Part shown: positions 29,367 to 57,327 of the stretch, piece after piece
Numbering within the stretch: position 1 is the first letter of the stretch
How the letters are laid out: each line of letters starts with the position of its first letter
Source of the DNA: a plasmid
DNA length: 64,000 nt
Strand: one strand, 5' to 3'
Sequence record: NZ_CP016173.1
Translations under genes and position numbers: made by a program
The notes under the pieces: generated by a model
Database searches by the model: none
What the model was told of the DNA's origin: nothing
Seen by the model: the letters and a program-made list of their open reading frames with translations, nothing else

Positions 29367-29370
29367 AGCT

Positions 29371-33615: not shown

Positions 33616-34610
33616 TCGACCTGAATGAAGTTTCCACCTCCCTGGCTGCGACGGCAGGGTGGGACAAGATGAGCGCCTACGAGCGCGCAAAGCTCGCCTG
33701 CGGCGCGCTGACGCGCGCGGGCGCTGCTGTTCCAAGCTGGACGACCATCCGCGACATCATAGGCAAAGGTAGCGCCGGGGACATCAATCGGGCCAAGAAA
33801 GACTTTCGTCTTGAGCACGCGGATACGCTGCGCAAACTGGAAGGGTTCTCTGCCGATGGGGTTCCGCAGTCCCTTACGCCCTATGTCGTCGGCTTATGGC
33901 GTGAAGCCATCTCGCACGCGCAACGCGCGTTTGCCGACAAGGAGCGAGTATGGGAAGAGGAAGTCGAGCAGGCCGTGGCGGGACATCAGCACGCTGAAGC
34001 GGAGCTTGAGCGCGCCCAGGCCGCAGCGCATGCAATGCAGGCAAAAATCGATGGCCTGGAGCAAGCGCGCCTCGCCCTGCAGGAGCAGTTGCAATCGGAA
34101 CAAGCAGCTCGCATTCAGGCCGAGAAAATGATTGACCAGATCCGCGCCGACCTGGTTGGACAGCGCAATCGCCTTGATGCCGCACTGGCGAATGCGCAAA
34201 CTGAGCTGGGGAAAGCCATCACCAGGCTCGAAGCGACTGAGAAACGGTCGATGATGGAAATCGAGCGAGCGCGGCAGGATGCCGCGCAGAAAATCGCAGA
34301 CGCGAATGCTCGCCTGAAGGGTGAGCAGGACAAGTTGCTGTTGGAAACGACGCGCCTCTCCAAGCAGCTCCAGGACGGTCGTGACAACGCCAAGCGCATA
34401 CAAGACCGGAACATCGTGCTTGAACGAGAGAACCGCACGCTTATTGACCGCGCCCAGCGAGCTGAGGCGCGCGCCAATGACCTGCAGGAACAGAACGCAA
34501 AACTACTTGCCAAACTAGGAAAGCCGGAGTTCGGCAGCGGCCGGGGAATCGTGAGAAGGCTCCGTCGCAAGAAAGGACAGCGCGCCCTCCCCGGCACCAA
34601 CCGTAGCTAA
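33612..34610 (+). CDS. KfrA-like DNA-binding protein with a long alpha-helical coiled-coil tail
   Basis: N-terminal …YERAKLACGALTRAGAAVPSWTTIRDIIGKGSAGDINRAKKDFR resembles the KfrA N-terminal DNA-binding domain. The remaining roughly 250 aa are A/E/Q/R-rich heptad-like coiled coil. Confidence 0.55.
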   Translation: MIDLNEVSTSLAATAGWDKMSAYERAKLACGALTRAGAAVPSWTTIRDIIGKGSAGDINRAKKDFRLEHADTLRKLEGFSADGVPQSLTPYVVGLWREAISHAQRAFADKERVWEEEVEQAVAGHQHAEAELERAQAAAHAMQAKIDGLEQARLALQEQLQSEQAARIQAEKMIDQIRADLVGQRNRLDAALANAQTELGKAITRLEATEKRSMMEIERARQDAAQKIADANARLKGEQDKLLLETTRLSKQLQDGRDNAKRIQDRNIVLERENRTLIDRAQRAEARANDLQEQNAKLLAKLGKPEFGSGRGIVRRLRRKKGQRALPGTNRS

Positions 34611-41589: not shown

Positions 41590-44049
41590 TCAACGCGGCT
41601 CGAAAACGAATTCGACCTTGCTGTTGTCGGCCGTCAATCGCAGGCCAGCAGAGAATGGTCGTTTCGTCTTGCTGCTGATAAAGCCGTGAACCGCACCCAA
41701 ACTGCCATTGGTGAGGAGTTCACGAGCCTCGTCATCGGACAAGTCCCGGCCCGCGACCTTGCGCCACAGTTTGAAATCGCCGTTTTCGCACACGAACTGA
41801 GGATGCTCACCCCACTTCACGTGTACGACACTGCCACAGTTCGGGCACGGCGCTCCAATCGAATTGCCCAGCGGCACCGGCTCGCGTTCCGCGAACTCGA
41901 ACTCAACCTTACTTTCGGCGCCAAGCTTCAGACCAGCTGAAAACTTCCGATTCGTCTTGCTGCTCACGAAGCCATCAAGCGGCTTGATGGACCCGTTCTG
42001 CAACAGTTCCTGCGCTTCCGCGTCGCTGAGATCGCGCTTGGCGATCTCGCGCCACATCTTCCAACCACATGCCGCCGCACACTCGAAGGTGCGAACCTTT
42101 GCCTGGACACCAGGGTTTCCGCACTTCGGGCACGGCACGGCCAGTTGCGCGACGGGCGCGACGGGCATATCTGAAGCTTTGCGCCGGATCACGTCGATCA
42201 TGTCGCGCGTCATCGCGGCGATTTCGTCCATGAAGGCACGACGGCTGTATTGCCCCTTCTCCATCAGCCGAAGCTTTTGCTCCCATTCCCCTGTCATCTT
42301 GGGCGAGGTCAACGAGCCCACGCCATTGGTCTCCAGGAAGGTCACCAGGCCCATGCCCTTCTCGGTAGGCACCAGGTGCTGTTCCTTGCCCTCGCGGCGC
42401 AAGTAGGGTTCTTTTGCACGCCCCTGGCCGTCCTGGTCCGACAGCAGCCCTTCGATCGTCGCGGCACGCGTTGCCGGCGTGCCTAGCCCACGCTCGCTCA
42501 TGGCGTGGCGCAGCTCGTCTTCATCCACGAGTTTGCCGGCGCCTTCCATAGCGGCCAGGAGCGTAGCTTCGGTGAAGCGTGCGGCAGGCTTGGTCTGCAA
42601 CCCCTTTGCCTCCACGCCTCGCGTCTGCACGGGCTCACCCGGCTGTACGGCGCAAAGTGCCGGCGTTCTGTCGTCGTCTCCCTGGCCACCGTAAACCACA
42701 CGCCAACCCGGATCCACAAGCACCTTGCCGGTGGACTTGAACGTCTCACCGGCCACCACGGATATCCGAGTGGTCAGGCTGTACTGTGCTGCCGGGTGAA
42801 ACACGGCGATGAACCGCCGTACCACCAGGTCGTAAATCTTGGCTTCATCCGGATCCAGCCCGCTGGGCGCGGTTTCGGTCGGGATGATGGCAAAGTGGTC
42901 GGAAATCTTGCTGTTGTCGAAAATCCGCTTGTCTGCGCGCACCCATCCGCTGTCCAATACACGCTTGGCGTGTTCGCCAAACGCTGCACGCGAACCCAAG
43001 CTTCCGAGCACCTGCTTTGCCGTGTCGATATAGTCCTCGGGCAGCGCCGTCGCATCCGTTCGCGGATAAGTCGTGGCCTTGTGTTTTTCGTACAACGCCT
43101 GTGCAATATCAAGGGTACGCTTGGCAGAGAACTTGAACCGCTTGTTCGCTTCCCGCTGCAACGTGGTCAGATCGAACAATCGGGGCGCAGCGTTCGAAGT
43201 GGTCTTGGACTCATCGGTAACCGAGCTGGGCGCCACGCCATCGCACATCGCGACGATCGCCAAGGCTTGGCCCTTATCGAAGATGCGGGCACCCGCCGCA
43301 TCAGGGTCTTCACCCTCGCCTGCCTTTTCCCCCTGTCGCATCCATCGGCCCGAATAGGTTCCGGCCTGTGCAGCGAAGGTCGCATGCACCTCCCAGTAAT
43401 CCTTCGGCACGAAATTGCGGATCTCACTTTCACGATGAACCACAATTGCCAGCGTGGGAGTCTGGACCCGCCCTGCCGTCATTTGCTCATAGGCGCCTTT
43501 CTGCCGCTCGCGCAGGCGCGTGATGCCACGCGAGCCGTTGATGCCGACCAGCCAGTCCGCCTCGCTGCGACATTTCGCGGCGTCGGCCAGCGCATTGAAC
43601 TCGTCCCCCGGCCGCATGCCTTCATAGGCCTGGCGGATCGCGTCCGCCGTCATGGATTGCAACCACATGCGTCGGATTGGCTTTTTGCAGCCAGCCGCCT
43701 CGTAGATCAGCCGAAAGATGAGCTCACCCTCGCGGCCCGCGTCGCAAGCGTTCACGACTTGCGTCACGTCTTCTCGCTTCATGAGCCGTGCGAGCAAATT
43801 GAATTGGGGCTTGGCGCGGTCCAGGACTTGAAGGCCGAAGCGCGGCGGAATTACCGGCAGCGTGTCGAGGTCTTTCCCTGTGGTCTGCGCTTCAGGCACA
43901 TGCAGAGTTACCAGATGCCCAACGGCAGAAGACACCAGCGCGTCGCCGCGTTCGAGCCAGCCGCCCTCGGCCTTTGAGAAACCGCCCAGGGCCTGCGCAA
44001 TATCGCGGGCGACCGACGGCTTTTCCGCGATGACAAGTATCTTCGACAT
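41590..44049 (-). CDS. topB: DNA topoisomerase III (type IA) with two C-terminal zinc-ribbon repeat domains
   Basis: Start at the Met of MSKILVIAEKPSVARDIAQALGG (RBS AAGGGG upstream); the ORF track extends further 5' to 44175. Toprim ACDAGREGE; ADWLVGINGSRGIT; catalytic LYEKHKATTYPRTDAT. Two roughly 80-aa C-terminal repeats follow (CPKCGNPGV…FSAGLKL and CPNCGSVVHV…FSAGLRL). Confidence 0.85.
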   Translation of the reverse strand: MSKILVIAEKPSVARDIAQALGGFSKAEGGWLERGDALVSSAVGHLVTLHVPEAQTTGKDLDTLPVIPPRFGLQVLDRAKPQFNLLARLMKREDVTQVVNACDAGREGELIFRLIYEAAGCKKPIRRMWLQSMTADAIRQAYEGMRPGDEFNALADAAKCRSEADWLVGINGSRGITRLRERQKGAYEQMTAGRVQTPTLAIVVHRESEIRNFVPKDYWEVHATFAAQAGTYSGRWMRQGEKAGEGEDPDAAGARIFDKGQALAIVAMCDGVAPSSVTDESKTTSNAAPRLFDLTTLQREANKRFKFSAKRTLDIAQALYEKHKATTYPRTDATALPEDYIDTAKQVLGSLGSRAAFGEHAKRVLDSGWVRADKRIFDNSKISDHFAIIPTETAPSGLDPDEAKIYDLVVRRFIAVFHPAAQYSLTTRISVVAGETFKSTGKVLVDPGWRVVYGGQGDDDRTPALCAVQPGEPVQTRGVEAKGLQTKPAARFTEATLLAAMEGAGKLVDEDELRHAMSERGLGTPATRAATIEGLLSDQDGQGRAKEPYLRREGKEQHLVPTEKGMGLVTFLETNGVGSLTSPKMTGEWEQKLRLMEKGQYSRRAFMDEIAAMTRDMIDVIRRKASDMPVAPVAQLAVPCPKCGNPGVQAKVRTFECAAACGWKMWREIAKRDLSDAEAQELLQNGSIKPLDGFVSSKTNRKFSAGLKLGAESKVEFEFAEREPVPLGNSIGAPCPNCGSVVHVKWGEHPQFVCENGDFKLWRKVAGRDLSDDEARELLTNGSLGAVHGFISSKTKRPFSAGLRLTADNSKVEFVFEPR

Positions 44050-44059
44050 GCCGCGCCCC

Positions 44060-44494
44060 TTACTGCTGGACGCTGTACTGCGCAGCGCGCGCGTGAATCC
44101 TGAGTGCCGCTGCTTCCTGTGCTTGTGCCGCCCGTACGGCCTGCCCATAGAGCGCGTCACCGGACATAGATTCATCGCTGTTCCGCGCCATTTCCCACAG
44201 CACGCGCATCACGAAAAGCGCATTACCTTCCGGGTCCAGGCCTTGATCGCGCAGATGGTCGATCACACCCTGGGCCGTATCCTGCAGACCGCTCGCCTGG
44301 AGAAAATCGGCGATGGATCCCAGACCTTTCGGATTCTGACTGGGGTGAATCACGATTGGCGTGATGCGATCCGCGTCGAGCATGTCCCAGTACGTCGAGC
44401 CGTCGCGCCCGACGCAGACGACCTTTCGGCCACCGGCCAGGTCGTCCATTTCAAGGTAAGTACCCGGCTGAAACTTCATCGTTTTCATTGTCAA
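44060..44494 (-). CDS. Hypothetical protein immediately upstream of topB
   Basis: 144-aa ORF. Not SSB-like: no OB-fold signature and no acidic tail. Confidence 0.4.
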   Translation of the reverse strand: MTMKTMKFQPGTYLEMDDLAGGRKVVCVGRDGSTYWDMLDADRITPIVIHPSQNPKGLGSIADFLQASGLQDTAQGVIDHLRDQGLDPEGNALFVMRVLWEMARNSDESMSGDALYGQAVRAAQAQEAAALRIHARAAQYSVQQ

Positions 44495-45980
44495 AATCCT
44501 GATGTCGGTCGGTAGAAATGGTGCTCAAACCACACATTTCTATCATATCAGCAACCATCATAGATGAGTCTTTTTTATTGACTTCGAGGTAATTCTCGAT
44601 CAATTTTGACAAATTTTGATGTCCGAAATGCCGCCCAACATTGGCGCTCCATTCCATGCCTTTCTTAGTCAAATCAAAGGATTGTGTGACAAGTTCGCGT
44701 GTCAGAAATTTGTTCACGTGATCGACCATCGTAGATGGTCGACCCAACCCGTTCTTGCTCATGAAATGCAGCAGCGACTGGGCCGGAGTCCACGCCTGGA
44801 ATCCCGGCGAGATCGGCTCGTTCCACAAGATCGACCCCTTTGCATCCCGTCGATGCCAAGCCAGGCCTTGCGCGGAAGAAGGCAACGTCGAAGTCTGCGC
44901 GGCATTTGGCATTTGCAGCTCACACGGCACGCCGCATTCGATCAAGCGCCTTGTCAGGTGTACAAGCACCCGCTCCTCAAAAGGCAGCAAGGAAAGCTCA
45001 CGGTTCAACGCCAAACCGATGACCATGGGGTTAGGGGCTTCATGCGCATACTCGCCTCCAGGTTCACGCACAGCCGTAAAGAGGCCAGGCACGAATCCGG
45101 CGCCGCTTGCGCGCGCGATCGCGGTAATTCGCCGCACCGCCTCGGGCGTAATCGCACAGTCCCTGGCCCTCGGGTAGGTCATCTGCCCACGCTCGTAGAG
45201 GTCTTGCATAGCGCTTGAGACCTCGGACACCTCACGCCCCGTCGCCAGGCTTGCGGACAACAAAATTTCATCGTGGTTCATCGGACGGCTCGCCATGGTG
45301 CCCTGTTTCACTGAACCCACGGACAGCCGCGCATCAAAGTGCGTGACATCAGGCACCGCCTCACCAGCGAAAATGGGTCTTCTGGCGATCCAATCCCCTT
45401 TCCCATCATCACTTGATGCTGCAAAAGTGACGATGCCCACGACCGGCACCTTCGATTGCAGCTCAAGCAGCAATGAACCCTGCACCCGCCCGACTGCCCC
45501 CTCTTCCCCCGACAGCGACCCGATAAGGCGATCCACAATGCGCCTGGCGTCACCACGGCAAGCCGTCATTTCATCGAATGGCCCGGCCGCAGCCAATGCA
45601 GCCTTCACTTCTGACGGGGCCAGCGATTTCAGCCGCACGCGCAACACCTTTGACCGATCCTTATCAGCGATGCAAAAGCGAAGCACGTCACGGGCGATCA
45701 CGTCCCCCTCTTGGTCGTCATCAGAGGCGAGATACACGTGCTTGGCTGACCTGGCCGCTTGCTCGATCTCCAAAGCGACACACTCGCGGTCGGGCTTCAG
45801 TCGATAGGCCAACTCGCGATACCTATCATCGATACCTATCGGCTTGAAGCCATCGGGATTGGTGCCGATATGCCCCACTGTAGCCAATACGCTGACATCC
45901 CGCATTCCGGCCGCGCGCAGCGCCGCAATCAACGCCTTGCGCTTTCCAGGCGCTTCAATCACAAAGACATTGGCAGGCAT
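44451..45980 (-). CDS. Second, short type IA topoisomerase-like protein (Toprim plus topo IA core only)
   Basis: VFVIEAPGKRKAL (Toprim Glu); YLASDDDQEGDVIARDV (DxD); RRIVDRLIG; LYERGQMTYPRARD (active-site Tyr motif); AHEAPNP. 509 aa. Confidence 0.6.
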   Translation of the reverse strand: MPANVFVIEAPGKRKALIAALRAAGMRDVSVLATVGHIGTNPDGFKPIGIDDRYRELAYRLKPDRECVALEIEQAARSAKHVYLASDDDQEGDVIARDVLRFCIADKDRSKVLRVRLKSLAPSEVKAALAAAGPFDEMTACRGDARRIVDRLIGSLSGEEGAVGRVQGSLLLELQSKVPVVGIVTFAASSDDGKGDWIARRPIFAGEAVPDVTHFDARLSVGSVKQGTMASRPMNHDEILLSASLATGREVSEVSSAMQDLYERGQMTYPRARDCAITPEAVRRITAIARASGAGFVPGLFTAVREPGGEYAHEAPNPMVIGLALNRELSLLPFEERVLVHLTRRLIECGVPCELQMPNAAQTSTLPSSAQGLAWHRRDAKGSILWNEPISPGFQAWTPAQSLLHFMSKNGLGRPSTMVDHVNKFLTRELVTQSFDLTKKGMEWSANVGRHFGHQNLSKLIENYLEVNKKDSSMMVADMIEMCGLSTISTDRHQDFDNENDEVSAGYLP

Positions 45981-45988: not shown

Positions 45989-47683
45989 TTACATGCTTAG
46001 GGTCGGACGCGACTCATCGGACAGCACGTCGTTCTGTTGGGCCTGGACGGCGCGCCCTATTTCGATGGCGCCGATGACCAGGCCGTTTTCGTCTTCCACT
46101 CCTCTCTCACCAGCCAGCGCTGCCCGTGCCACCAAAGCAGCTACCTCCGATGCTGATCTTCCAGGAGAAAGCCGGATGGAGATCCGCACATCATCGTCTG
46201 CCACAGCTTGCTCCGGCTCTGCAAAAGAAATGGAACCGACCGTGTTTCCGTTGATGTCGCATACGTCAACCTCCTCCCCTGGCGTGCGGTCCATCTGCTC
46301 AGCAACCGCACGAACGATATTGGCAAGCTCATTGCGCATGCCCACGTCCATGAAAGCCGCGGTATCGGGGCGAATCGTGATCACCGCGACGGAAGGCGCA
46401 ACCTCGACCTCGGCGTCCAGCCAACGATCGACCTTCAGGTGCGAGACCTCGGTAACCGCAACCCCTTTGTATTCGCCATGCTTTTTCACCTTGAAGCGTG
46501 CCGCAAAGGTGCGGTCCACAGCTTGAGGCTTGAGCAGATCGTCGGGCGGACTGGAGGTGCGCCATGACAGCCGATTTCCGTTTGAATCCCGGAAATTTAA
46601 ACGCCATTGCAACCCGTACTGGGTATCCCAGCTCGTCACAGAGTGGAACGTGAGCGGTTCATCACGCTTCTGGCCAACCTCACCGACATGAACCGATGGA
46701 ATCTCGGCGTCACGTTCCTTGGCGTGCTGCCGCTGGTGCCCTGCTACCGCGCCCGCCGCAAAGGCCAGATACTTGCTCTTGAGCTCTATGTTTTCGTTTG
46801 AGAACAGGGTCTTTACGTTGCTCGTGAATGAGTCGTCGTTCTCCGATTTCAGCCACCAAGCAATGATCTTATCGGCGTATTGGGCGTGACGCTCGTAGTC
46901 CTGATAGAAGCGATCGCGACGCCTTGCATCCCGTTGAAGCTCTCGATCAAGCCCAGCGGCACGTTCATACGTGGCGAGCACGAAAGCCTCTTTGGCCTTG
47001 GCAGCCGACACAAAGCCCTTATCTACTTCCATGCAGAAGAGAACACGAGCAAGATAACCTTTGACCGGCATCGCGGTCACGCGCCCGGTGTCGGCGCTGA
47101 ACGATTCTTCACCGTAGTCGCTCCAGAACGCATGCATCTGCTGCGTGAAAAGCGCAATGCTCGGATCGACTCCGGCGAAATCTTCCAGGCAGGTAGAGCC
47201 AACTTCTTTGTAATTGCCTTGTCGATCTTTGAGCAAGTAACTGAGCTTCCTGGCACGCTTCGTGTTGCAGTGCTCGCAATTGATTGCGCAGTTAGCATGT
47301 GAGCGCATCACTTCCACGTCATCGGGATCGGTAGAGACGGAGAACAACAAGTTGCCCGCTTCTGTCGCCTCGATCTGACCCACAACGGACCAGTCGCCCA
47401 ACTTGACAATCGGGTAGTCCAACGAAAGGCGATTGACCAGGAATACCGCGCGTCCGAAGGGCGGCTCATCTCCCTCCATGAGCCGGACAATATATGCCTC
47501 GGTACCCGCGCTCGTATCCTGCGTCTTCCAGTAGTAGCGTTGCTGGCTTGTTGCGACCACCTTTATGGGGTCGAGCCCAAAGGCCTCCGCCTTCTTGTTC
47601 AACCGTGCAAGCGAAGACTCGAAATCGTCCATCCCGTGAAGGGGAACAAGGACATCGCTTTGAAGACGCGTAGCCATAGTCAC
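45989..47683 (-). CDS. Large hypothetical protein with a Cys cluster (CAINCEHC) and two C-terminal copies of a roughly 65-aa DINGNxVG repeat domain
   Basis: 564 aa. C-terminal …ITIRPDTAAFMDVGMRNELANIVRAV…VCDINGNTVGSISF matches repeats in the 49516-51717 protein. Confidence 0.5.
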   Translation of the reverse strand: MTMATRLQSDVLVPLHGMDDFESSLARLNKKAEAFGLDPIKVVATSQQRYYWKTQDTSAGTEAYIVRLMEGDEPPFGRAVFLVNRLSLDYPIVKLGDWSVVGQIEATEAGNLLFSVSTDPDDVEVMRSHANCAINCEHCNTKRARKLSYLLKDRQGNYKEVGSTCLEDFAGVDPSIALFTQQMHAFWSDYGEESFSADTGRVTAMPVKGYLARVLFCMEVDKGFVSAAKAKEAFVLATYERAAGLDRELQRDARRRDRFYQDYERHAQYADKIIAWWLKSENDDSFTSNVKTLFSNENIELKSKYLAFAAGAVAGHQRQHAKERDAEIPSVHVGEVGQKRDEPLTFHSVTSWDTQYGLQWRLNFRDSNGNRLSWRTSSPPDDLLKPQAVDRTFAARFKVKKHGEYKGVAVTEVSHLKVDRWLDAEVEVAPSVAVITIRPDTAAFMDVGMRNELANIVRAVAEQMDRTPGEEVDVCDINGNTVGSISFAEPEQAVADDDVRISIRLSPGRSASEVAALVARAALAGERGVEDENGLVIGAIEIGRAVQAQQNDVLSDESRPTLSM

Positions 47684-48513
47684 GGCTCCAGCCCGCGTGC
47701 GTCCAAATCAATTTCATTGCCATCCGCATCAGTGATGAATAGCTCCTTGTCATCACTCCCTGCGTAGTCGCCGAACCATGCTTTGCGGTAAACACCTATC
47801 GCATCGCCTCCGGCATCGCGAACATAGAACTCCTTGGTAAGGAATCCATCCAGCTCGACCCAACCCGTCAGAGACACATCGGGATAAAGCGCGCCATGCT
47901 CGTTCTTATCCCGGTTCCACGCTGCGATCTCGGCTTCCGACAGGATCTCCAAGCCGAGAGCTCGAAGCCGCCGCTCCGCTTCGTCCACACGAGCCGACAC
48001 ATCGTCCGGGCCCACGCTGGCGTGCTGCCCAAGCGCGGTGGCCGGGCGTACATCATCAAGCGTCAATCCGCATGCGCGCGCCGACTTCACATACTCGATG
48101 CAGAAATGGGACAACATCACGCTACCGAACACCCGCGTGATCTCCGAATCGGCCAAGCTCGCGATATCCTGAGTCCTCATCGTCTCAATCAACTGATCAA
48201 GCCATTTCGGATCATCCCCGCCCTGGGCGAGCCGATTTTTTATGCCATTAATGCGTTCGTACCGATCGACCTGAGGGCTCTTCTGCAATTCCGGCACGCG
48301 ATACTTCATCAGCCATTCCGGGCCGAGCGTGTTGCGCACCCGCTGCAACGCCGCCGAGTGCTCCTCTGTCATTCCGGGATAACGGGCTCGCTCCCAGCAA
48401 TCTCGCAGCGCGGATTTCCAGTTTCGGCCGTTCTTGTCGCGAAAGGTCGCCAGCGCTTCCTCCTGCAAAGGCGTCAGCGCTTCTACCTCGTGGGATTTCG
48501 GGTGCTCGGCCAT
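47680..48513 (-). CDS. Hypothetical protein, paralog of the 48521-49477 gene
   Basis: 277 aa. Shares DPKWLDQLIETMRTQDIASLADSEITRVFGSVMLSHFCIEYVKSARACGLTLDDV with its neighbour. Confidence 0.5.
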   Translation of the reverse strand: MAEHPKSHEVEALTPLQEEALATFRDKNGRNWKSALRDCWERARYPGMTEEHSAALQRVRNTLGPEWLMKYRVPELQKSPQVDRYERINGIKNRLAQGGDDPKWLDQLIETMRTQDIASLADSEITRVFGSVMLSHFCIEYVKSARACGLTLDDVRPATALGQHASVGPDDVSARVDEAERRLRALGLEILSEAEIAAWNRDKNEHGALYPDVSLTGWVELDGFLTKEFYVRDAGGDAIGVYRKAWFGDYAGSDDKELFITDADGNEIDLDARGLEP

Positions 48514-48520
48514 ACGTCAC

Positions 48521-49477
48521 CTACATCGGGCTCGGGGCATCGTCGTCTGCACGATTGCCGTTCTTCTTGGCCGCTTCCACGGCCTCCTCCACGCTGCCGA
48601 CTGAAGAAAGAAAATCGCGCATGTCTTGTGTGATCGTCAGTTGATCCGATTCGCGTACCCACTCACCCTTCCCACGAATGGTCACATAATCGGTACTCCA
48701 GCCGTCGGTGATGGCAATATGCCCGTTCGGCATTTGGGCGACATAGCTTTCGCAAGACGGCGACGTGTACAGGACGAGCTCGCCACTTTCATCGCGCAGC
48801 CCATTCCGTGCCTCACCGCTGCTAACAACCAGCTCATCTTCGATGTCGCGATCCAGCGCTGTGAGAGGATAAAGGTCATCGAGGATCAAGCCACACTGGC
48901 GCGCAGCTTTCGCATACTCAATGCAGAATCCTGACAGCACAACTTGGTCAAATACGCGCTCGATTTCCGCATCATCCAGGCTCGTAATTTTCTCGGCCTG
49001 CATCTTTCCCAAGATCCCATCCAGCCATCGGGGATCCTGGCCATTGGTGGCGAGCCGCTCCTTCAGGTCTTCTTTCCAATTGAGCGCATCGAGCAGGGCA
49101 TCGCCATCGATGGCTTCGAGCATTTCGGCGCTTACGGAAATCCCCCAACTGCCGTCCATCCGATTCGCATGCCCGGACGCGAGGCGCAAATTCACGGTGG
49201 TCGCACGGGGGTCGAATCCGAACTCCACGTCTTGGATCAGTGCGAAGTTGCCGCTCTCAATCGTCACGCGGTTCACTTCTTGCAGCAGCTCCCGTACGTG
49301 AGCGCGCGCCATCTCTTTCGCGATATCCAACCGATCCTGGTCGTACCCGCCCTCTGAAGCCATTACGGCCAGCTTCGTATGCCTTTCAGCCAAGTAGGCG
49401 AGCCGTACAGAAAAATTGTGCGCGTCGGCATTCTTCATGCCGCGCTCCTGAAGGCGCAAGGCCAAATCACGATCCAT
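48521..49477 (-). CDS. Hypothetical protein, paralog of the 47680-48513 gene
   Basis: 318 aa. DPRWLDGILGKMQAEKITSLDDAEIERVFDQVVLSGFCIEYAKAARQCGLILDDL aligns with its neighbour. Confidence 0.5.
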   Translation of the reverse strand: MDRDLALRLQERGMKNADAHNFSVRLAYLAERHTKLAVMASEGGYDQDRLDIAKEMARAHVRELLQEVNRVTIESGNFALIQDVEFGFDPRATTVNLRLASGHANRMDGSWGISVSAEMLEAIDGDALLDALNWKEDLKERLATNGQDPRWLDGILGKMQAEKITSLDDAEIERVFDQVVLSGFCIEYAKAARQCGLILDDLYPLTALDRDIEDELVVSSGEARNGLRDESGELVLYTSPSCESYVAQMPNGHIAITDGWSTDYVTIRGKGEWVRESDQLTITQDMRDFLSSVGSVEEAVEAAKKNGNRADDDAPSPM

Positions 49478-49515
49478 GTTGTTTCCTCTCGGCTTCCGGC
49501 AAGGATGATGGTTAA

Positions 49516-51717
49516 TTACGCTAGTTCAGGCGCATCGCCACTCATGCGGCGCTCGTACTCTTCGAAGGAGACACGCCCCAGCACGACATCTTCAAGCGAT
49601 TTAAATTGGTCGCCACTGAGCTTGTCGAACTGGTTTTCTCGCACTATCTGCGGCTCTTCATAGCCGTTGGCGACCTCGCCCTTGGCGTTCACAAGCCACA
49701 CCTCGCCCTCGCCCTGCCCGTATCCTGGCTCGAAATCGGGCGCAGTCACCACGTACCGATACTCGTCTTCGGCAATGCCCGAGTAGCCATCTTCGGCGAG
49801 ATAGACCCGGCCCTCGGCAAGGGCCTTTCTCATGTCAATCACGCCATCTTGCTCCAACGACGGCGCGGCCTGGTACAGGTAGGAGCCGACGACATTGCCA
49901 TTGATATCAGTCAGCGGAAAATCATCTTTCCCACTACGGACTGTCGAGGCAGCGTCCCGCAGGATGCGGGCCACTTCACTTGCAGCATCGTTTTCGAATG
50001 CCGCATTGCCAGTCTCGATAACAACTCGCACCGCTCCATCCTGCAAGGGTCCGTCTGGGAGCTTGTCCGCGACATCCATGCAGCCAACGCGATTGCCATT
50101 GATGTCGTATAGCTTGAAGTCGGCGCCCCAAAGGCCTGGCAGCGATTTGATCTTGTCGCCGGCATTTTGGATGATGCGAGCAACCTCTTCATTGCGTCCC
50201 GTATCGACAAAAGCGGCATTGCCCGTATCTTCGATCAAGAGCGTCACATACAGCTTTTTCATTTGAAAATCCTCCCAAAACCGTTCGTCGCTCAGTTCCC
50301 GCACGCGCTTTTCATCCAGGGGCACCCAAAGCGGTTGACCCCGAAGATCAATCTTGATGGTGCGGTCATGCGGATCGTCGTGGAAGGTCAGACCATCCAC
50401 ACCAGGCAAGTCACCAAATAGCGCCTTTACGCTCGCCTCGATTGTGCAAATGGCATGGTCCTCCTTACTACTGAGCCCCCCTTCGTGAGCGCTCAGCCGC
50501 GCCAAAATGCAATGTTGCGCCGCGAGCTCTCGCATCTGCTCCTGCAATTGCAACGCGGCCGAGAGCGATAGCCCAGTCCCTTCGCGCAGCGCCTCCACGA
50601 ATTGCCGCTGATTCTCTGCGAGGTTTGCCATCCGCGCGGCATCGCCGACCGCTTGTATCTGCCCGATCAACTCAAGAGACTCGTCACATTGCTCTTGGGC
50701 ATACTCTTGGAAGTCGCATACAACAAACGGCCCTTCTTCCGGGCACGCTTTCATGAGCTCCGCCATCGCATATTCGGCTCCTGTCTTGGAGAGAAGGGTC
50801 ACGCCCTCGAAGTCGGGGTCCGGCAATTTCAGGCTTAGGGATGTCTTACCGTTCGCATATAGTCTGCCAAACGCGCGGCCATGCTTATCCAGCACGATAA
50901 GGCGGTTCGTGGTGAGTACGTTGGGAGGCCGGTTGGCGGCTTCTTGCCACGCATTTGCGTGCTGTCGCAGTGTGGCGATGGTCTCAGTGCGAAGGTCTTC
51001 GGTGTCCTTCACCACGAGCGTCTCGCCGTCCATGTCGAAGGAAAGCTGGACGGTCTCTCCAAGCTGATTTTTCACCTGCACATGCTTATGGCTCTCGACT
51101 AGCTCCGCCAATTGATCCTCTGGGACGTTGGCGCCATGGGCGGTCAAGCCGTCTTCATCCCGCGTCGTCTGCACCACCACCGGCTTTCCGTCCACCAGCC
51201 AGAAGCCGTCTTTGCCTTGCGAGATCTCCATACGAATTCCTTGCTCGTTCATAAAATAAGCGCGCACCTGCGCTGACTCTTCGGGCGACAACCGGCGAAC
51301 ATTCTGGATGTCCCAGACAAAGACGCTTGAAGGCGAAGCCCAATCGTCGTTCTCCCATACTTGGATCCCCCCGTACCCAAGCTGCCGCGCCGCTTGAGGA
51401 AGCGGAAGCTCGTCGGCCAGGAAGTAGTCCACGAAAGGCTTTCCGCGCTGCGCGGATTCCAGCGCTTCGGTCAGTCTCTCGCGATCCTGCTCAAACAATC
51501 CTGGGTGCTCCAACGCCCTGGTCAGAATCGACTCGGCGACATCTTTGTCTGTGGTGTCCGCTATGCGTACCTGACCCAGGTCATAGACCTCGACGCCGGC
51601 GTTGGTCGGATCGAAATAGGTGCTACTTCCCTGCGTGGAAAAATAGGCACCATTGGGGCCTATATCGCCGCGCCTGACGCCCAGCAGACCCACAGAACGT
51701 GGAAGTTCAAAAGCCAT
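49516..51717 (-). CDS. Large hypothetical protein with two tandem DINGNxVG repeat domains
   Basis: 733 aa. Repeats …IEDTGNAAFVDTGRNEEVARIIQNAGDKIKSLPGLWGADFKLYDINGNRVGCMDV and …IETGNAAFENDAASEVARILRDAASTVRSGKDDFPLTDINGNVVGSYLY. Confidence 0.5.
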   Translation of the reverse strand: MAFELPRSVGLLGVRRGDIGPNGAYFSTQGSSTYFDPTNAGVEVYDLGQVRIADTTDKDVAESILTRALEHPGLFEQDRERLTEALESAQRGKPFVDYFLADELPLPQAARQLGYGGIQVWENDDWASPSSVFVWDIQNVRRLSPEESAQVRAYFMNEQGIRMEISQGKDGFWLVDGKPVVVQTTRDEDGLTAHGANVPEDQLAELVESHKHVQVKNQLGETVQLSFDMDGETLVVKDTEDLRTETIATLRQHANAWQEAANRPPNVLTTNRLIVLDKHGRAFGRLYANGKTSLSLKLPDPDFEGVTLLSKTGAEYAMAELMKACPEEGPFVVCDFQEYAQEQCDESLELIGQIQAVGDAARMANLAENQRQFVEALREGTGLSLSAALQLQEQMRELAAQHCILARLSAHEGGLSSKEDHAICTIEASVKALFGDLPGVDGLTFHDDPHDRTIKIDLRGQPLWVPLDEKRVRELSDERFWEDFQMKKLYVTLLIEDTGNAAFVDTGRNEEVARIIQNAGDKIKSLPGLWGADFKLYDINGNRVGCMDVADKLPDGPLQDGAVRVVIETGNAAFENDAASEVARILRDAASTVRSGKDDFPLTDINGNVVGSYLYQAAPSLEQDGVIDMRKALAEGRVYLAEDGYSGIAEDEYRYVVTAPDFEPGYGQGEGEVWLVNAKGEVANGYEEPQIVRENQFDKLSGDQFKSLEDVVLGRVSFEEYERRMSGDAPELA

Positions 51718-51721
51718 CGCG

Positions 51722-52162
51722 TCACTGCATCACAGATGCCGACGTGCCGCCCAGATAGCTGGCATATAGCCGGAGCACATCATCCAGGCGCCGCAAGCTG
51801 CTTTCGTCCACCTTCGCGTCGAAGTTGTAGTCCATATCGGCTTCTGACACCACATTGAGCAACACTTCCTCGTCATCGAGCACCACCGTCGCGTAGAGGA
51901 CGTTGCGCGCTTCATCCCCTTCGCGCTGGAGCAGCCCGAACTCGATGACGTTATCTCGATGGCTCAGGGTCGCCGAGAGACTGGACTCATCCGGCGAACG
52001 GCGGACCACCCATTGACGTCCGAACTCCCGCACACCGTCGGGGCGCACGATCACCTCTTCGTCTTTCTCCTCGCCTGGTCCAGGCAGCGAGCTCATAAAC
52101 GACAGGACGTGCTCCCGCACCATCCGGCAGGTTGCTGCGGTCATGTTGATGCTCCTTCGCAA
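51722..52162 (-). CDS. Hypothetical acidic protein
   Basis: 146-aa ORF; the start may be the internal Met at about 52144. 4 nt upstream of the 733-aa gene. Confidence 0.4.
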   Translation of the reverse strand: MRRSINMTAATCRMVREHVLSFMSSLPGPGEEKDEEVIVRPDGVREFGRQWVVRRSPDESSLSATLSHRDNVIEFGLLQREGDEARNVLYATVVLDDEEVLLNVVSEADMDYNFDAKVDESSLRRLDDVLRLYASYLGGTSASVMQ

Positions 52163-52695
52163 AAAAGGCGCGACCCGTCAAAGACGAGTGCCGCGCCCGA
52201 TTGATGTTCCAGTTTGGCGATCGCAACATCCAACGGATGCCCTTCAAGCCATGATGATCGCTGGTGATAAAGCCGCACGAAAGCGGCCAACCCGTCCAGG
52301 GTGTCGAACTGTTGCGCCCGCGACGCTCCCAAGCTCACCAGCTCGATAGGTAGGCCAAGGTCGAACAGGTAACGCACCGTCTGCTGCGGCGCGCGCGCTT
52401 GTATTTCAGCGTGAGTTTCCCCAAGTACTGTGGGCTGCATTTCAGCGGTCACCACAAGGAGGCGACTCGTATCCGCGCACATTGATCGCGCGAAAGTCCC
52501 GGCCACAAGGTGCCCGCCTGCGCAGGCAAAGGCTCGTGTACGGCACAAGGCCTTCCCCAGCCCTGCCGCCTCGTACTCGGGCAAGGCAAGCTCAACGATT
52601 GGGGTGCCAGGCAGCGTGGGCAAGTTTTGGCCAGGCGGAATCCAGGCCGACATCGCCTTCGCGCTTAGTTGTGGGCCAAGCAGATCCGTTCCCAT
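52141..52695 (-). CDS. Hypothetical protein (first gene of the 11-kb minus-strand operon)
   Basis: 184-aa ORF. Preceded by an AT-rich region with TTGACG/TTGACA hexamers (52700-52800). Confidence 0.4.
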   Translation of the reverse strand: MGTDLLGPQLSAKAMSAWIPPGQNLPTLPGTPIVELALPEYEAAGLGKALCRTRAFACAGGHLVAGTFARSMCADTSRLLVVTAEMQPTVLGETHAEIQARAPQQTVRYLFDLGLPIELVSLGASRAQQFDTLDGLAAFVRLYHQRSSWLEGHPLDVAIAKLEHQSGAALVFDGSRLFCEGAST

Positions 52696-52801
52696 GAGCC
52701 ACCATTTCTTAGCATGGCCGCATGTTAACTCACATGGACATCAAAAAACAATTTTTTTGACGGGTCAGATTGACACACTACCGACGAGGCCCCGCCGTTT
52801 T

Positions 52802-53083
52802 TTAGAATAGCAGCGGGCCAGCAACCCACACCAAGGCATAAAGCGCACCCCCACCACAATATATGTGCTGGGGGTCTCCCTCCGGCTCAGCGCTCACTGC
52901 GAACAGCACGGCAAGCAGCGACGTGCCCACGCCAAAGAGCGCGGCTGGCAGATTCATGTTCATCCTTGATTCGACGGTGGGTGGCCCCGCATAACGTCCG
53001 CTTGTCCGGACGCTATGGTTCAAACTCCTGACGCTCAGCAGGAGCGATATCCCACACGTCATCGAGCACGGCTGTCGATGCAA
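52802..53083 (-). CDS. Small membrane peptide
   Basis: ORF of 93 aa; the likely start is the internal MNMNLPAALFGVGTSLLAVLFAV, giving about 53 aa with two hydrophobic segments. Confidence 0.3.
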   Translation of the reverse strand: MHRQPCSMTCGISLLLSVRSLNHSVRTSGRYAGPPTVESRMNMNLPAALFGVGTSLLAVLFAVSAEPEGDPQHIYCGGGALYALVWVAGPLLF

Positions 53084-53759
53084 GCGTTTCCTCGGCGTTC
53101 ATGACGTGGGTCTGCGGCGCCCGATCAATCGCCTCTACTGTGCGCCATAGCTGTTTTCCCAGAGCTGCGGAAACGCTATCCTGGCCCGCTGAGCCGATGG
53201 CTCTCACACCAGCGCTGATGAGCGTCTCCGCGCGGCAACCCGCTTCGACGCCAAGTGCGGCCTCTACGGTTTCTATCGTCCGCGATGCACGCGCAAGCAC
53301 CGCGTAGGTGTGCCCGGCCAGCCAACCCACATCTGGCGTATGCCCCACTTGGACCGATTGCTCTAGATGCTGCGCAACATCGCGTAGATAGGTTTCGTAA
53401 TCCACGATGGCGCCATTAAGGAACACGGCGGCCGCACCGGCATAGCCTCGCACGCCAGTGGTTTCGTCACCCTCTTCCTTCAGGCGAGCATAAAGCTCCA
53501 GAACGGCCGCTATAACTGCACTGCGCTTGCGCGAGCTGCGCTCTTCCGGATCCTCGCTATCCCCGTTTGCCGCCGTGAATGCCTCTGCGAGCCTATCGCG
53601 GCATTCGGCGAGCACCCGCATCACATAGCCGTCCTGAGCAAAGAGCAATACATCCCGATCAAACGCCCCGCTACGTTCCGCGTCCTGCAGGTCCGCGATC
53701 ACAAGCTCCTTTAGGAAGGGCTGGTAAACGGGGGTAGGACATTTGCGATCCGGTTCCAT
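53013..53759 (-). CDS. Hypothetical protein
   Basis: 248-aa ORF. Confidence 0.45.
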   Translation of the reverse strand: MEPDRKCPTPVYQPFLKELVIADLQDAERSGAFDRDVLLFAQDGYVMRVLAECRDRLAEAFTAANGDSEDPEERSSRKRSAVIAAVLELYARLKEEGDETTGVRGYAGAAAVFLNGAIVDYETYLRDVAQHLEQSVQVGHTPDVGWLAGHTYAVLARASRTIETVEAALGVEAGCRAETLISAGVRAIGSAGQDSVSAALGKQLWRTVEAIDRAPQTHVMNAEETLASTAVLDDVWDIAPAERQEFEP

Positions 53760-55325: not shown

Positions 55326-56225
55326 TTACTGAGACAATTTGGCCCACATCATCACTCCAACGCACGTTACAAAAAAAATCACAAGTATGTTGAATTGATA
55401 CCGCATCCATAGCTGCCGACATGCCCAGCGCAGCGGCCTGGCCCGAGCAGCCTCAATTTCGGCCACCAAGTCGCGACGGACGCGCTCCAGGCGATTGTTG
55501 CTATACGACAGGTCTTTTATCTGCGCGCAGCCGTGCCGGAGATACTCCACTAAGCCCCATTCCTCAATGTTCTCGCCCCATACCTCCGGGGCAACGGGGG
55601 TCAGCTGCGCAGCGACCATCGTGGAGAGCGATACCCCAGATCGACGGTCTGGGGTGTATTCGAAGACGATGCCGAATTGCTCATATAAGCGGTTCCTCCG
55701 CTCACGATTCTCGTCGGACCCATCCACAGTCGATAGCGAAATCTGGCGCACTTGCGCTGTCGGCCATTGCTTGGCCCAGCGCACCACCTCGTCAAGCAGG
55801 TATGTGCCGATGTGAGCGCCACGGGGAATCCCCTCGCCATTGACCATCACGCTGCCGCCCGTGATGCTTACTCTTCCTGACCCGTCGGGAGACCAATCCC
55901 ATCTCCCCATAAAACGGTGGTTGTTGAATCCCCCGCGCGCCCCATCAAGCGCCACATAGGAAAGCGTAATCGCCGCGTGATGCTCGCTGCGGGACTCTTC
56001 GCGGTACACCAGCAAACGACATTGAATGCGGCTTGGCTCCTTTCGATCCCTTACCACCAGCACTCTCGCCGACGGTGGCATTTCATCGCTGGATCGGCCA
56101 CGCCAGTTTTTCCAGAACAGGAGCGACATGCCCGCGCCCTCAAATGAATTGACCGTAGGAGCCGAGCACGTATTCGGCTTGCCGATCCACGCAGATCCAG
56201 CGACGCCCCAACCTTTCGGCGGCAA
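55326..56225 (-). CDS. Hypothetical protein overlapping the 3' end of the methyltransferase gene (candidate cognate partner)
   Basis: 299-aa ORF with a C-terminal hydrophobic helix. An alternative start at MSLLF (56129) lies 10 nt after the methyltransferase stop. No nuclease motif was confidently identified. Confidence 0.45.
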   Translation of the reverse strand: MPPKGWGVAGSAWIGKPNTCSAPTVNSFEGAGMSLLFWKNWRGRSSDEMPPSARVLVVRDRKEPSRIQCRLLVYREESRSEHHAAITLSYVALDGARGGFNNHRFMGRWDWSPDGSGRVSITGGSVMVNGEGIPRGAHIGTYLLDEVVRWAKQWPTAQVRQISLSTVDGSDENRERRNRLYEQFGIVFEYTPDRRSGVSLSTMVAAQLTPVAPEVWGENIEEWGLVEYLRHGCAQIKDLSYSNNRLERVRRDLVAEIEAARARPLRWACRQLWMRYQFNILVIFFVTCVGVMMWAKLSQ

Positions 56226-57327
56226 GTCCTACCTTGCACCGACCGGCCAGGCAATCGACAACCAGTTGGCCCCTCTCCGTCAAAAACTCGATGAGAAACT
56301 GAGCCAGGCGCACGGGCATCGATGCGCCATGAGTGGCCAGGCCATGCTCCGCGCAATACCGGCGATACGCGGCGTCACGATCGTCTGCACAGCGCGCAAA
56401 TTCAAGGACATTCTTCGGAATTCTTCCTTCGGTTTGCCTGGAATACGCCCCCACGCGCTTTCTATAGGCGCCGTCGGAATGCACCGCGCCTGCCTTTATC
56501 CCGCCCGCCCGCACGAAGCGGGAGTGCTGCTCGCTATGCGGCTCCAAAACCCTCCGGTTGTCCGCGAGAACGCGGTCCGGATCGTTGGTAAGCCAGTACA
56601 CGGGCTCATATGCCGTATTGAGCTGCACGCGCTTCTTGCTCGCCCATGCGACCGGGCCAGGTGGCTTGGGAGAAGTCCAAATGATCTCGTCCATCTTGTA
56701 CAAGCCCAGGCGAGCGTGCAACGCCAGTATCAACCGTTCCCGATACAGCGAACGTGCCGGCGACCTCTGCATGAAAACGTCATTGCCGACGTTCAAGCAA
56801 ATGGATCCGCCTTGCACCAGGTTGCGCACGACAGGCTCAAGAACCTTGCACAGCCAATCGACATAGCGCGATTCGGGCACATTGCCATAGGCGCGTGGCT
56901 GTGCAAGTGGATATGGCGGCGATGTCACGATCAAGTGGATGGGCTCCGAGATCTTCGTGAAGAAATGCTCGCACGATGAAATAACAGCGATACCCAGCTC
57001 CGTCGAAAAGCCGAGGATAGCGGCGCCATCGGCAATCAACGGCAGTCCGCTTCCGTCAATGCCCTTTCCTGTCAATTGCCACAAACCACGCTGGCCTGCA
57101 GGTTCAATTACCCCGGCATGCTTTAACGTCTGCTGATACCACCGCACGCGGCGTTTCAAGAGACTCACGGGGGACTGCGCCTGGCCCACAGGCCGCCGCT
57201 CCTCAAAAGCCTCGCTACTGATACCTGTTGCCCTCGCCACAGCGTCGTAAAGACGCTCCTGGCTCACGGGTTCACCGGCCTGCACGTAAGTCTCAGCCAC
57301 CGCCGCGAAGAGATTCAAATCCTTCAC
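56140..57327 (-). CDS. Beta-class DNA methyltransferase (N4-cytosine or N6-adenine), with an N-terminal winged-helix-like region
   Basis: Motif IV LIVTSPPY (SPPY) precedes motif I VVDCLAGRCKVGLAAERLGRRWICVDRQAEYV (FxGxG-like AdoMet pocket). This beta-class order (IV before I) is typical of ParB-associated and orphan methyltransferases on mobile elements. 395 aa. Confidence 0.75.
   Translation of the reverse strand: MKDLNLFAAVAETYVQAGEPVSQERLYDAVARATGISSEAFEERRPVGQAQSPVSLLKRRVRWYQQTLKHAGVIEPAGQRGLWQLTGKGIDGSGLPLIADGAAILGFSTELGIAVISSCEHFFTKISEPIHLIVTSPPYPLAQPRAYGNVPESRYVDWLCKVLEPVVRNLVQGGSICLNVGNDVFMQRSPARSLYRERLILALHARLGLYKMDEIIWTSPKPPGPVAWASKKRVQLNTAYEPVYWLTNDPDRVLADNRRVLEPHSEQHSRFVRAGGIKAGAVHSDGAYRKRVGAYSRQTEGRIPKNVLEFARCADDRDAAYRRYCAEHGLATHGASMPVRLAQFLIEFLTERGQLVVDCLAGRCKVGLAAERLGRRWICVDRQAEYVLGSYGQFI

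Follow-up and report, generated by a model that had tools for sequence, protein, structure and literature searches.

Reshuffled protein modules beside two topoisomerase genes in a family of Dot/Icm plasmids: possible split, polyvalent-like establishment factors

A ~119-kb (118,710 bp) plasmid of Bordetella flabilis (sequence record NZ_CP016173.1) carries, within the 64,000-nucleotide stretch analysed here (the window), six minus-strand genes encoding proteins of 184, 146, 733, 318, 277 and 564 amino acids (aa), which run directly into the genes of two topoisomerases. We name the genes after the length of their products (g184, g146, g733, g318, g277 and g564) and refer to those lying between g146 and g564, here g733, g318 and g277, as the block. 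On sequence comparison, both the block and the C-terminal part of g564 are made of about eight small, autonomous and uncharacterised modules, one of which, the DINGN domain of 55 residues, belongs to a very large family of phage and plasmid proteins that is new to the curated domain databases. In related plasmids adjoining genes carry these modules recut, joined in other ways and in other orders, so that the block behaves like a polyvalent protein split over several polypeptides. We therefore propose, with a probability of roughly 0.45, that the proteins of this locus are split, polyvalent-like establishment or counter-defence factors, possibly exported by the type IVB secretion system of the plasmid. 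The size of the DINGN family, the shuffling of modules at a fixed plasmid locus and a C-terminal tail shared by the products are, in our opinion, the most interesting elements of this system.

The block proteins are mosaics of shared modules

The six proteins and those of their neighbours were compared with Pfam, NCBIfam, PHROGs and PADLOC. The six matched only two PHROGs of unknown function, without a single match in Pfam, and ten proteins of the array gave no match in PADLOC-DB 2.0. Sequence searches of the PDB with g733, a g564 profile and a 1,120-aa protein encoded elsewhere in the window returned nothing significant (a weak match to an L36 zinc ribbon had an E-value of 0.71). A literature search on the motifs and PHROG identifiers retrieved irrelevant matches only, and the papers on B. 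flabilis do not mention the plasmid genes. The absence of known catalytic motifs, which the original prediction had noted from the sequence alone, is thus supported, and no signature of a characterised family was detectable either.

Module reuse was followed by local BLASTP of the block proteins against DINGN-carrying proteins (P numbers; L numbers denote loci). The acidic protein g733 (49516-51717, minus strand, as are all the features of this array; isoelectric point (pI) 4.5, net charge -56; 100% identical to a B. flabilis protein) contains at least five modules: (i) module F (aa 1-~160; 51238-51717), which is also found in P0004, in P0128 and in an open reading frame (ORF) of an Opitutaceae plasmid (aa 1-143, 40% identity), and is missing from the g733 orthologues of L007 and L001; (ii) module G (aa ~239-355; 50653-51003), present at varying positions in P0141, P0154, P0179, P0184, P0194, P0196, L001 and L011; (iii) module B (aa ~366-485; 50263-50622), the same module that forms the N-terminus of g318; (iv) a tandem pair of DINGN domains; and (v) the C-terminal module E (aa 626-733; 49519-49842), which usually follows a DINGN pair, was seen in 47 of a sample of 119 DINGN proteins with several domains, recurs, like module G, in many combinations and ends in an acidic tail of the type ...F-E-[ED]-[FHY]-E-R...D-D-P-E-L-G.

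The other proteins are built likewise, with three to four modules each. The acidic g318 (48521-49477) consists of module B (49088-49468), module C (48869-49084) and a third module (48575-48793) that is 71% identical to aa 10-82 of P0232. The equally acidic g277 (47680-48513) consists of module A (48298-48477), module C (48043-48255) and a C-terminal module (47704-47982). Module A (aa 13-72 of g277) reappears as the N-terminus of the 913-aa P0141 (70% identity) and in internal positions in P0184, P0196, L001, L006 and L007. Module C, of 71 aa, is the part that g277 and g318 have in common (58% identity, E 3e-25), and it is also embedded in P0004, an orthologue of g733, and adjoins C-termini of the KfrB type in P0143 and P0157. 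Thus g277 and g318, originally described as clear paralogs, are homologous over this one module and not over their whole length. Module B (aa 4-130 of g318) matches aa 347-459 of the g733 orthologues P0002 and P0003 (E ~1e-5) and occurs twice in each of P0141 and P0165; a direct BLASTP of g318 against g733 aligns the same region with a non-significant E-value of 1.6, so that the sharing of module B rests on these intermediates.

The same modules therefore recur in different orders across genes, and are fused in proteins of 800-1,000 aa (P0141, P0165) and of up to 1,341 aa. The locus had been described as duplicated and modular; the modularity is borne out, and more modules are common to its genes than had been seen. 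At the DNA level there are no repeats beyond the DINGN motif itself. This led us to reject a recent duplication, and the reshuffling would therefore be both old and ongoing at the level of protein modules.

The DINGN domain defines a large family absent from curated databases

The tandem repeat domain predicted in the 564- and 733-aa proteins is real: each protein has two copies, and the two pairs match one another with an E-value of 4e-9. In g733 the copies occupy aa 487-556 (50050-50259; matching phrog_9027) and aa 557-625 (49843-50049; the copy used for structural modelling), and in g564 they lie at 46208-46402 and 46034-46207. The four copies can be aligned, with A, E, A, D, N, G and G invariant. 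A profile made from them was searched against 1.84 billion cluster representatives (50%-identity clusters), and matched 5,241 proteins or clusters at E <=1e-3, 144 of them at E <=1e-10. Most of these matches are standalone proteins of 55-70 aa or contain exactly two adjacent copies, the pairs making up the whole protein (130-160 aa) or being joined to partners of great diversity in proteins of 200-1,341 aa. In an alignment of 79 sequences the signature reads x-I-x-T-G-N-A-A-F ... E-V-A-R-I-L-R ... L-x-D-I-N-G-N-T-V-G, where A17, D48, N50 and G51 are invariant and eleven more positions are at least 90% conserved.

The only described family that the domain matches is phrog_9027, whose function is unknown (g733, E 7e-16 in two stretches; g564, E 3e-5); it has no match in Pfam, NCBIfam, PADLOC or the PDB, and the remote-homology check proposed with the original prediction thus found no characterised family. 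That prediction had also assigned the system to one family of elements; the domain itself is not peculiar to it. DINGN domains are present in Brevundimonas jumbo phages, in Gordonia, Ruegeria and Achromobacter phages, and, according to a genome scan with a 10-sequence DINGN alignment as query, in genomes or metagenome-assembled genomes (MAGs) labelled Proteobacteria, Bacteroidota, Planctomycetota, Cyanobacteriota and others. Some DINGN genes adjoin portal and terminase genes, and others lie within long one-directional runs of tiny uncharacterised ORFs. The domain is therefore new to curated domain databases, yet not rare. The fusion partners of the DINGN pair include KfrB, ART-PolyVal and LPD11, KfrB being the commonest known one (5 of 79 carriers).

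Both the standalone DINGN proteins, whose median pI is 4.7, and the proteins of the block are strongly acidic, which argues against DNA binding by either. The structural models are confident (predicted local distance difference test score, pLDDT, 86-91, for the second DINGN copy of g733 and for g564). The conserved polar residues occupy three places, namely the loop that follows strand 1, the beginning of the helix and the turn that follows strand 2; in this topology these elements come to one edge of the sheet, and they may form a conserved binding pocket or interface there.

A separate observation concerns P0245, a 2,607-aa protein of the Gram-positive pilin or adhesin type (SpaA, Collagen_bind and SdrD_B repeats), which matches the second half of the DINGN domain only, seven times. 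This match is probably a convergent D-x-N-G-x turn and not homology.

A conserved frame surrounds a variable block

For comparison we used the locus of nine replicons related to this plasmid: MAG contigs of Thauera (116 kb) and Halothiobacillaceae (114 kb), Logan assemblies of 117 and 122 kb, a 72-kb contig from a Solibacteraceae bin, a Massilia contig (134 kb) that is traceable only up to the block, a 111-kb plasmid of Pseudomonas savastanoi, a near-identical plasmid of P. syringae, and a record of Aeromonas veronii annotated as a 197-kb plasmid. Across them a frame is kept, in the order g248-g184-g146 ... g509-g144-TopB-small ORF-ArdC, mostly as 1:1 orthologues of 35-77% identity, where g509 and TopB are the two topoisomerases. 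The exceptions are local: g564 is missing in two of the nine, the topoisomerase genes of the Aeromonas record are annotated as fragments, and the P. savastanoi plasmid shows no orthologue of g248, g184 or g509. By contrast with this fixed frame, the interval between g146 and g564 holds two to five genes, in which the same modules come in different orders. The combination of fixed frame and variable block is seen in L001, L002, L006, L007 and L010-L013, and homologues of g733 and g564 were also found in a Castellaniella contig and in Xanthomonas plasmids. A megablast search of PLSDB with the 6.7 kb of the six genes found no near-identical plasmid.

These comparisons confirm that throughout the plasmid family the genes have been kept intact and in synteny with those of the topoisomerases and ArdC, and that the diversification suggested earlier takes place in the central block, by reshuffling of modules. 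They also qualify the statement that the array is physically wired to the topoisomerases. The association holds as backbone synteny in one plasmid lineage and once more in L018, an unrelated conjugative element (TraG_N) of a Spongiibacteraceae MAG; it is not a general property of DINGN proteins. In L018, a standalone DINGN gene (6001-6162) lies ~3.3 kb upstream of a TopB-like gene (9444-11513), and this represents a second, independent DINGN/topoisomerase neighbourhood. Separately, in L006 a gene for a 5'-3' exonuclease (FEN-like; 7336-8115) is inserted between a 165-aa and a 250-aa gene of the frame; this gene is not present in the window.

g564 resembles single-stranded DNA-binding proteins

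Most of the length of the protein g564 (45989-47683) corresponds to a described phage family: aa 13-416 (46436-47647) match phrog_2319 (profile positions 8-394 of 399, E 1e-49), to which a DINGN pair is fused. It contains a cluster of cysteines, as predicted, with a spacing of C132-x3-C136-x-H138-C139 ... C165 (47189-47290) instead of CxxCxHC. In 30 g564 homologues C136, H138, C139, R143, R145, G162 and C165 are invariant, and the C-terminal barrel has conserved positions as well; the homologues from Xanthomonas, Ectopseudomonas and Burkholderia are without the DINGN pair. The AlphaFold model (pLDDT 86) has two five-stranded barrels of the oligonucleotide/oligosaccharide-binding (OB) fold, together with a helical domain and two DINGN units, and Foldseek gave partial matches to phage single-stranded DNA-binding proteins (SSBs).

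The likeness of g564 to the OB-fold proteins that bind single-stranded DNA (ssDNA), such as SSB, RPA and the wedge domain of RecG, lies in these partial structural matches. It differs from them in having an additional Zn-knuckle and a helical domain and in lacking the acidic D-D-D-I-P-F tip, and its sequence showed no membership in SSB or RPA families in searches of Pfam, NCBIfam and the PDB. Binding of nucleic acid, probably ssDNA, by g564 is nevertheless the best-supported single functional inference at this locus. A role in DNA processing, as originally suggested for the whole set, is thus plausible for g564, on account of its OB folds, while the acidity of the DINGN domain and of the block proteins argues against it for the rest.

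Both topoisomerase genes are as had been described. TopB (DNA topoisomerase III; 41590-44175, likely start 44049) scores 979 bits against NF006032 and has two Toprim_Crpt repeats. The product of g509 (44451-45980), the downstream neighbour of g564, is a compact and divergent type IA topoisomerase: the Pfam Toprim and Topoisom_bac domains score above their cut-offs, and an alignment with TopA of E. coli shows that DDDQEGD, MTYPR (with the catalytic tyrosine), AHEA and GLGRPST are all kept. Its full-length orthologues in the plasmid family are 61-77% identical. With 509 aa this 'mini' type IA enzyme has ~60% of the length of TopA or TopB, and its gene is always followed by a gene of 142-144 aa that overlaps its end by ~38-41 nucleotides (nt), and then by TopB.

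A C-terminal tail is shared by the products of the array

Several products of the array end in short acidic tails containing proline: ...DARGLEP in g277, ...DDDAPSPM in g318, ...SGDAPELA in g733, ...SRPTLSM in g564, ...RQEFEP in g248 and ...ERMARPSPSI in ArdC. The tails of orthologues are conserved, RQEFEP for instance in three plasmids. With 279 ORFs of the fetched loci as background, the final residue is proline in 40/119 multi-domain DINGN proteins, compared with 17/279 background ORFs and 6/113 standalone DINGN proteins; proline is among the last four residues in 80/119, 81/279 and 13/113, respectively, and the last decapeptide is acidic in 52/119, 29/279 and 17/113. A position-specific scoring matrix (PSSM), trained only on 72 external proteins without the homologous C-terminal module, ranked ArdC first among the 76 ORFs of the window, followed by g277 (rank 4), g248 (5), g318 (6) and g564 (8). 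In the P. savastanoi plasmid it placed the block proteins and the g564 orthologue among the top 14 of 113, with a strawberry-notch (Sno-type) polyvalent protein at rank 7, ArdC at 12 and an LPD1 protein at 14; of the 16 proteins listed, DotG (rank 16) alone is a structural component of the Dot/Icm system. In that plasmid the tail also ends several uncharacterised proteins besides the Sno polyvalent protein, and not the structural proteins of the T4SS (type IV secretion system).

We considered whether the tails mimic the C-terminal tip of SSB (D-D-D-I-P-F) and rejected this candidate, since the terminal residue is usually proline, glycine or methionine and not aromatic. DotM of type IVB systems binds acidic, Glu-rich C-terminal signals (PMC5802825). 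The tails of the array, acidic or rich in proline, partly resemble these Dot/Icm signals, in that the last ~10-20 residues are acidic and that many have a hydrophobic residue two to three positions from the end, and DotM is encoded on the plasmid itself, IcmW and DotL on a relative. They differ in being short and proline-marked, often ending in E-P, S-P, P-E-L-G or S-M, which is not the Legionella consensus, and in belonging to a conjugative system in which their recognition is hypothetical. The shared tail fits what would be expected of a common recognition tag, and we regard it as a lead and not as a result.

Organisation of the array

All six ORFs are present on the minus strand with the predicted lengths, and their junctions, into the topoisomerase genes, were measured and have gaps or overlaps of 38 nt or less, as claimed. 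The GC content at third codon positions (GC3) of the six is 0.63-0.75, above the GC content of the window (~0.58), as expected of real genes. The first of the six, g184 (52141-52695), is a conserved backbone gene that follows a gap of 317 nt; its product has no detectable domain (no match in Pfam, NCBIfam, PHROG or PADLOC) and has 1:1 orthologues with 35-68% identity in L002, L006, L007 and L010-L013. The next gene, g146 (51722-52162), encodes an acidic (pI 4.65) conserved backbone protein of probably ~140 aa: its orthologues (46-64% identity) align from residue 7 (in L013 only from residue 40), and Met7 (52144) is the probable start. With this start, as in most orthologues, g184 and g146 overlap in an ATGA-type junction. 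Gaps of 4 nt (g146/g733), 38 nt (g733/g318) and 7 nt (g318/g277) follow, then a 4-nt GTGA overlap between g277 and g564 and a gap of 8 nt between g564 and g509. Between both topoisomerase genes lies g144 (44060-44494), a small conserved gene whose start overlaps the end of g509 by ~38 nt, an overlap kept in relatives, and which is separated from TopB by ~10 nt if the start of TopB is MSKILV. The array is closed by ArdC (ArdcN plus MPTase-PolyVal; 39517-41187).

In consensus scans promoter-like and terminator-like sites were not commoner than in shuffled sequence, and the terminator-like sites on the operon strand between 52695 and 41590 are weak and all within ORFs. A single transcript, as had been predicted, is therefore compatible with the sequence. 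The same-strand array reaches further upstream, through g248 (53013-53759), an acidic conserved gene of the syntenic frame, to a methylase gene at 57327, so that the whole minus-strand array runs from 57327 down to 39517 (~18 kb), with the six genes as its middle. This methylase (56140-57327) is an Mrr_N domain fused to a DNA methylase (N6_N4_Mtase), for which no partner nuclease was recognised among the ORFs scanned; in L006 and L007 it likewise heads the array of genes on this strand.

The gap of 317 nt between g248 and g184 (52696-53012) contains a candidate ORF of 53 aa (52802-52963, minus strand; MNMNLPAALFGVGTSLLAVLFAV…YALVWVAGPLLF) with two hydrophobic stretches, followed by an A/T hairpin (TCAAAAAAATTGTTTTTTGA) and then by ~100 nt of AT-rich sequence up to g184. 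As ssDNA, the 331-nt gap region 52690-53020, which is partly occupied by this small ORF, folds better than shuffled sequences (z -3.4 and -2.7).

The plasmid belongs to a type IVB family

The window encodes a DotM_C protein (9275-10588), a lipoprotein similar to TraI of IncI plasmids and DotC, a DotB-type ATPase, a KfrA_N protein (33612-34610) and a tyrosine recombinase, and also an inverse autotransporter of the invasin type and a DUF5710-HerA fusion. It is collinear with the 111-kb P. savastanoi plasmid over DotH, DotI, DotD, DotC, DotB, ParM, DotM and DotA; the latter plasmid also carries DotG, DotO, DotL and IcmW, as well as a 2,201-aa Sno-type polyvalent protein, the LPD1 protein, and SSB, HU and NADAR genes. 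Because of the Dot/Icm genes in the window and in this collinear relative, we assign the element by its gene content to the type IVB (Dot/Icm, I-type) conjugative plasmids. It is not an integrative and conjugative element (ICE).

MOB-suite detected no relaxase in related plasmids and typed them as non-mobilizable. For this reason a 1,120-aa protein of the window (29972-33334, plus strand; small ORFs at 29001-29975) is a candidate: it may be a relaxase, or another protein of DNA processing, that has escaped recognition. It lies just upstream of the KfrA_N protein, has no match in Pfam or the PDB, and shares 51% identity with a protein of 1,131 aa encoded by the P. savastanoi plasmid.

Three other features of the window may be mentioned. 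A HerA/DUF87-type ATPase with an inserted DUF5710 domain (60063-61559, plus strand) is conserved in L006, and DUF5710 is also annotated in the P. savastanoi and Aeromonas plasmids. The inverse autotransporter (901 aa, invasin/intimin type, with IAT_beta, three Big_1 and Invasin_D3; 19889-22594, plus strand) directly follows the DotA homologue; the host species is a cystic-fibrosis isolate. Finally, two ORFs of 389 aa each (at 58675 and 62783) were considered as copies of one insertion sequence, and this was rejected as they are unrelated to each other.

Discussion

We infer that the six proteins described here would act during or just after the entry of DNA into a new host. According to this proposal, g564 would bind the incoming single strand via its Zn-knuckle and OB folds, and the acidic DINGN pairs, together with the other acidic modules, would serve as binding, decoy or inhibitor modules directed against conserved host factors, such as nucleases, defence sensors or their nucleotide signals. 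The topoisomerases and ArdC would handle DNA topology and restriction, and the DotL-DotM-IcmSW coupling complex could recognise the acidic, proline-containing tails and thereby let these proteins accompany the DNA to the recipient. A role in establishment or anti-defence had been put forward from the start, and the context fits it: ArdC, an orphan Mrr_N-N6/N4 methylase and TopB are encoded in the window, and SSB, HU, NADAR and polyvalent proteins in relatives. In PADLOC, in contrast, nothing at the locus points to a defence system. In a bolder version of the proposal, a conjugative type IVB system would use the block as its shuffling 'effector cassette': the block proteins, like ArdC and the polyvalent proteins of the plasmid, would bear an undescribed short, acidic, proline-containing export tag and be injected into recipients, where the DINGN pair, a very widespread and undescribed fold unit, would neutralise a universal host factor or immune signal; we consider this version unlikely as it stands.

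Two known systems are the closest to this arrangement. The polyvalent proteins (Iyer, Burroughs, Anand, de Souza & Aravind 2017, PMC5512222) are, like the block, made of many small modules, each autonomous, which orthologous loci carry in shuffled order, and are encoded by phages or by plasmids with a T4SS, as is the case here to judge from the Dot/Icm genes of the window and of the P. savastanoi relative. Moreover, ArdC, with its ArdcN and MPTase-PolyVal domains, adjoins the block, a Sno helicase and an LPD1 protein occur in the same plasmid family, a few DINGN carriers contain ART-PolyVal, LPD11 or KfrB, and solo versions of the domain exist in phages. However, and in spite of these similarities, there are differences: (i) a polyvalent protein combines 2-15 domains of disparate function in one giant polypeptide, whereas here uncharacterised modules are distributed over several adjoining ones of 277-733 aa; (ii) the domains described in polyvalent proteins (MPTase, ArdC-N, ART, LPDs, methylase-helicase, PBECR and others) are found in none of the six proteins, nor is there a recognisable enzymatic domain; and (iii) the polyvalent-protein concept presumes that the protein is delivered with the DNA by the T4SS, which is hinted at here only by the enriched C-terminal signature.

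The second system is represented by the anti-defence islands of plasmid leading regions (Samuel & Burstein 2024, PMC11541004), whose hallmarks are orphan methylases and SSBs on one strand. The array shares with them its single direction of transcription, with the Mrr_N-N6_N4 methylase and ArdC on the same strand, many uncharacterised genes and, in a relative, an SSB nearby. It differs by its topoisomerases and by its large multi-module proteins, since the inhibitors of the islands are mostly small and single-domain, and no Frpo/ssi-like element was detected in it. As for the two PHROGs that are matched (PHROGs v4), phrog_9027 and phrog_2319 are single-domain phage proteins; here g564 unites the two in one polypeptide, and DINGN copies come in pairs within mosaics.

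Several observations weigh against our proposal. No link to a function could be found by homology for any of the six proteins. Recognised polyvalent-protein domains (ART-PolyVal or LPD11) are present in only one of the 79 DINGN carriers sampled, and ten large carriers (760-1,341 aa) contain no real Pfam domain, their sole match, to DUF2680, being below the curated cut-off. The DINGN motif is very highly conserved from Gordonia phages to proteobacterial plasmids, which is unusual for inhibitors engaged in an arms race. Neither the origin of transfer (oriT), beside which a leading-region island would lie, nor a relaxase was recognised; no Rfam element was matched, and scans for an ssDNA promoter of the Frpo/ssi type found none, there being no model with which to score the fold of the gap. 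With regard to the tails, the motif was found post hoc and its PSSM is weak and sensitive to register; g733 does not score high; the tails of proteins with module E are homologous and hence not independent; and we found no published precedent for the pattern, which differs from the classical E-block of Legionella.

Other explanations have to be weighed on the same evidence. The proteins could act in the donor, without being exported, and form there a Kfr-like scaffold or accessory complex that is bound to the plasmid and takes part in replication, topology control or partition. The tight translational coupling with g509, g144 and TopB, the 1:1 conservation of the frame genes and the presence of a KfrA_N protein and ParM on the same plasmid are all in keeping with such a role, as is the rank of KfrB among the partners of the DINGN pair (5/79), and the OB folds of g564 could serve the lagging strand or the ssDNA intermediates of vegetative replication. 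We nonetheless hold this to be improbable, as the rapid reshuffling of the block is atypical of housekeeping machinery, standalone DINGN genes reside in lytic and temperate phages and in arrays of small accessory ORFs, and not beside replication or partition genes, and the neighbouring ArdC and orphan methylase counter the restriction of a recipient. A different idea is that DINGN binds a small ligand and acts as a sponge for nucleotide second messengers or another phosphate-bearing ligand, the pairs neutralising immunity based on signalling. Near-invariant polar residues mark the Gly-rich loop behind strand 1 (T-G-N-A-A-F), the first turn of the helix (E, R) and the D-x-N-G-N turn behind strand 2, and the fold suggests that the beta-alpha-beta crossover would bring them to the usual edge of a phosphate or nucleotide pocket; conservation across phyla points to a universal ligand, and the occurrence of the domain as single ~60-aa proteins or pairs suggests oligomeric pockets. 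The acidity of the domain disfavours anionic ligands, and we hold this idea to be decidedly unlikely.

A defence module had also been suggested from the sequence alone. The modular and variable architecture, and one DINGN locus (L019) adjoining an SNF2-Mrr nuclease gene, would suit a plasmid-borne defence or exclusion module that diversifies against phages or competing plasmids. PADLOC returned no match, effector domains of any kind (nuclease, ATPase, NTPase, TIR, SIR2 or others) were not found, phages themselves encode DINGN proteins and the genes next to the block act in counter-defence, all of which leaves such a module very little room. Still harder to believe is that the genes are decaying, functionless duplicates, for which one could adduce the lack of any detectable function or known domain: the ORFs are intact, with elevated GC3 and conserved start/stop overlaps; orthologues of 35-77% identity keep their length and order in the replicons compared; the models are confident (pLDDT 86-91) and the motif is strongly conserved in a family of thousands; and there are no DNA-level repeats beyond the motif. 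The pseudogenised duplicates that were named beforehand as a possible refutation are thus not what is found.

Even if our proposal of split, polyvalent-like establishment factors is wrong, the locus remains a clean example of unannotated multi-module proteins conserved beside two topoisomerases. If it is right, a domain that is absent from Pfam and present in more than 5,000 clusters of phage and plasmid proteins would gain its first functional context, together with test proteins of 60 aa. The C-terminal signature might make it possible to predict from sequence which proteins a conjugative type IVB system carries as cargo, and the question of what enters recipients along with plasmid DNA would become open to direct tests. 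The ~110-135-kb Dot/Icm plasmids, a family with members in Bordetella, Castellaniella, Thauera, Massilia, Pseudomonas, Xanthomonas and Aeromonas, would then represent a natural experiment on the way in which shuffling of modules at one fixed locus diversifies establishment factors.

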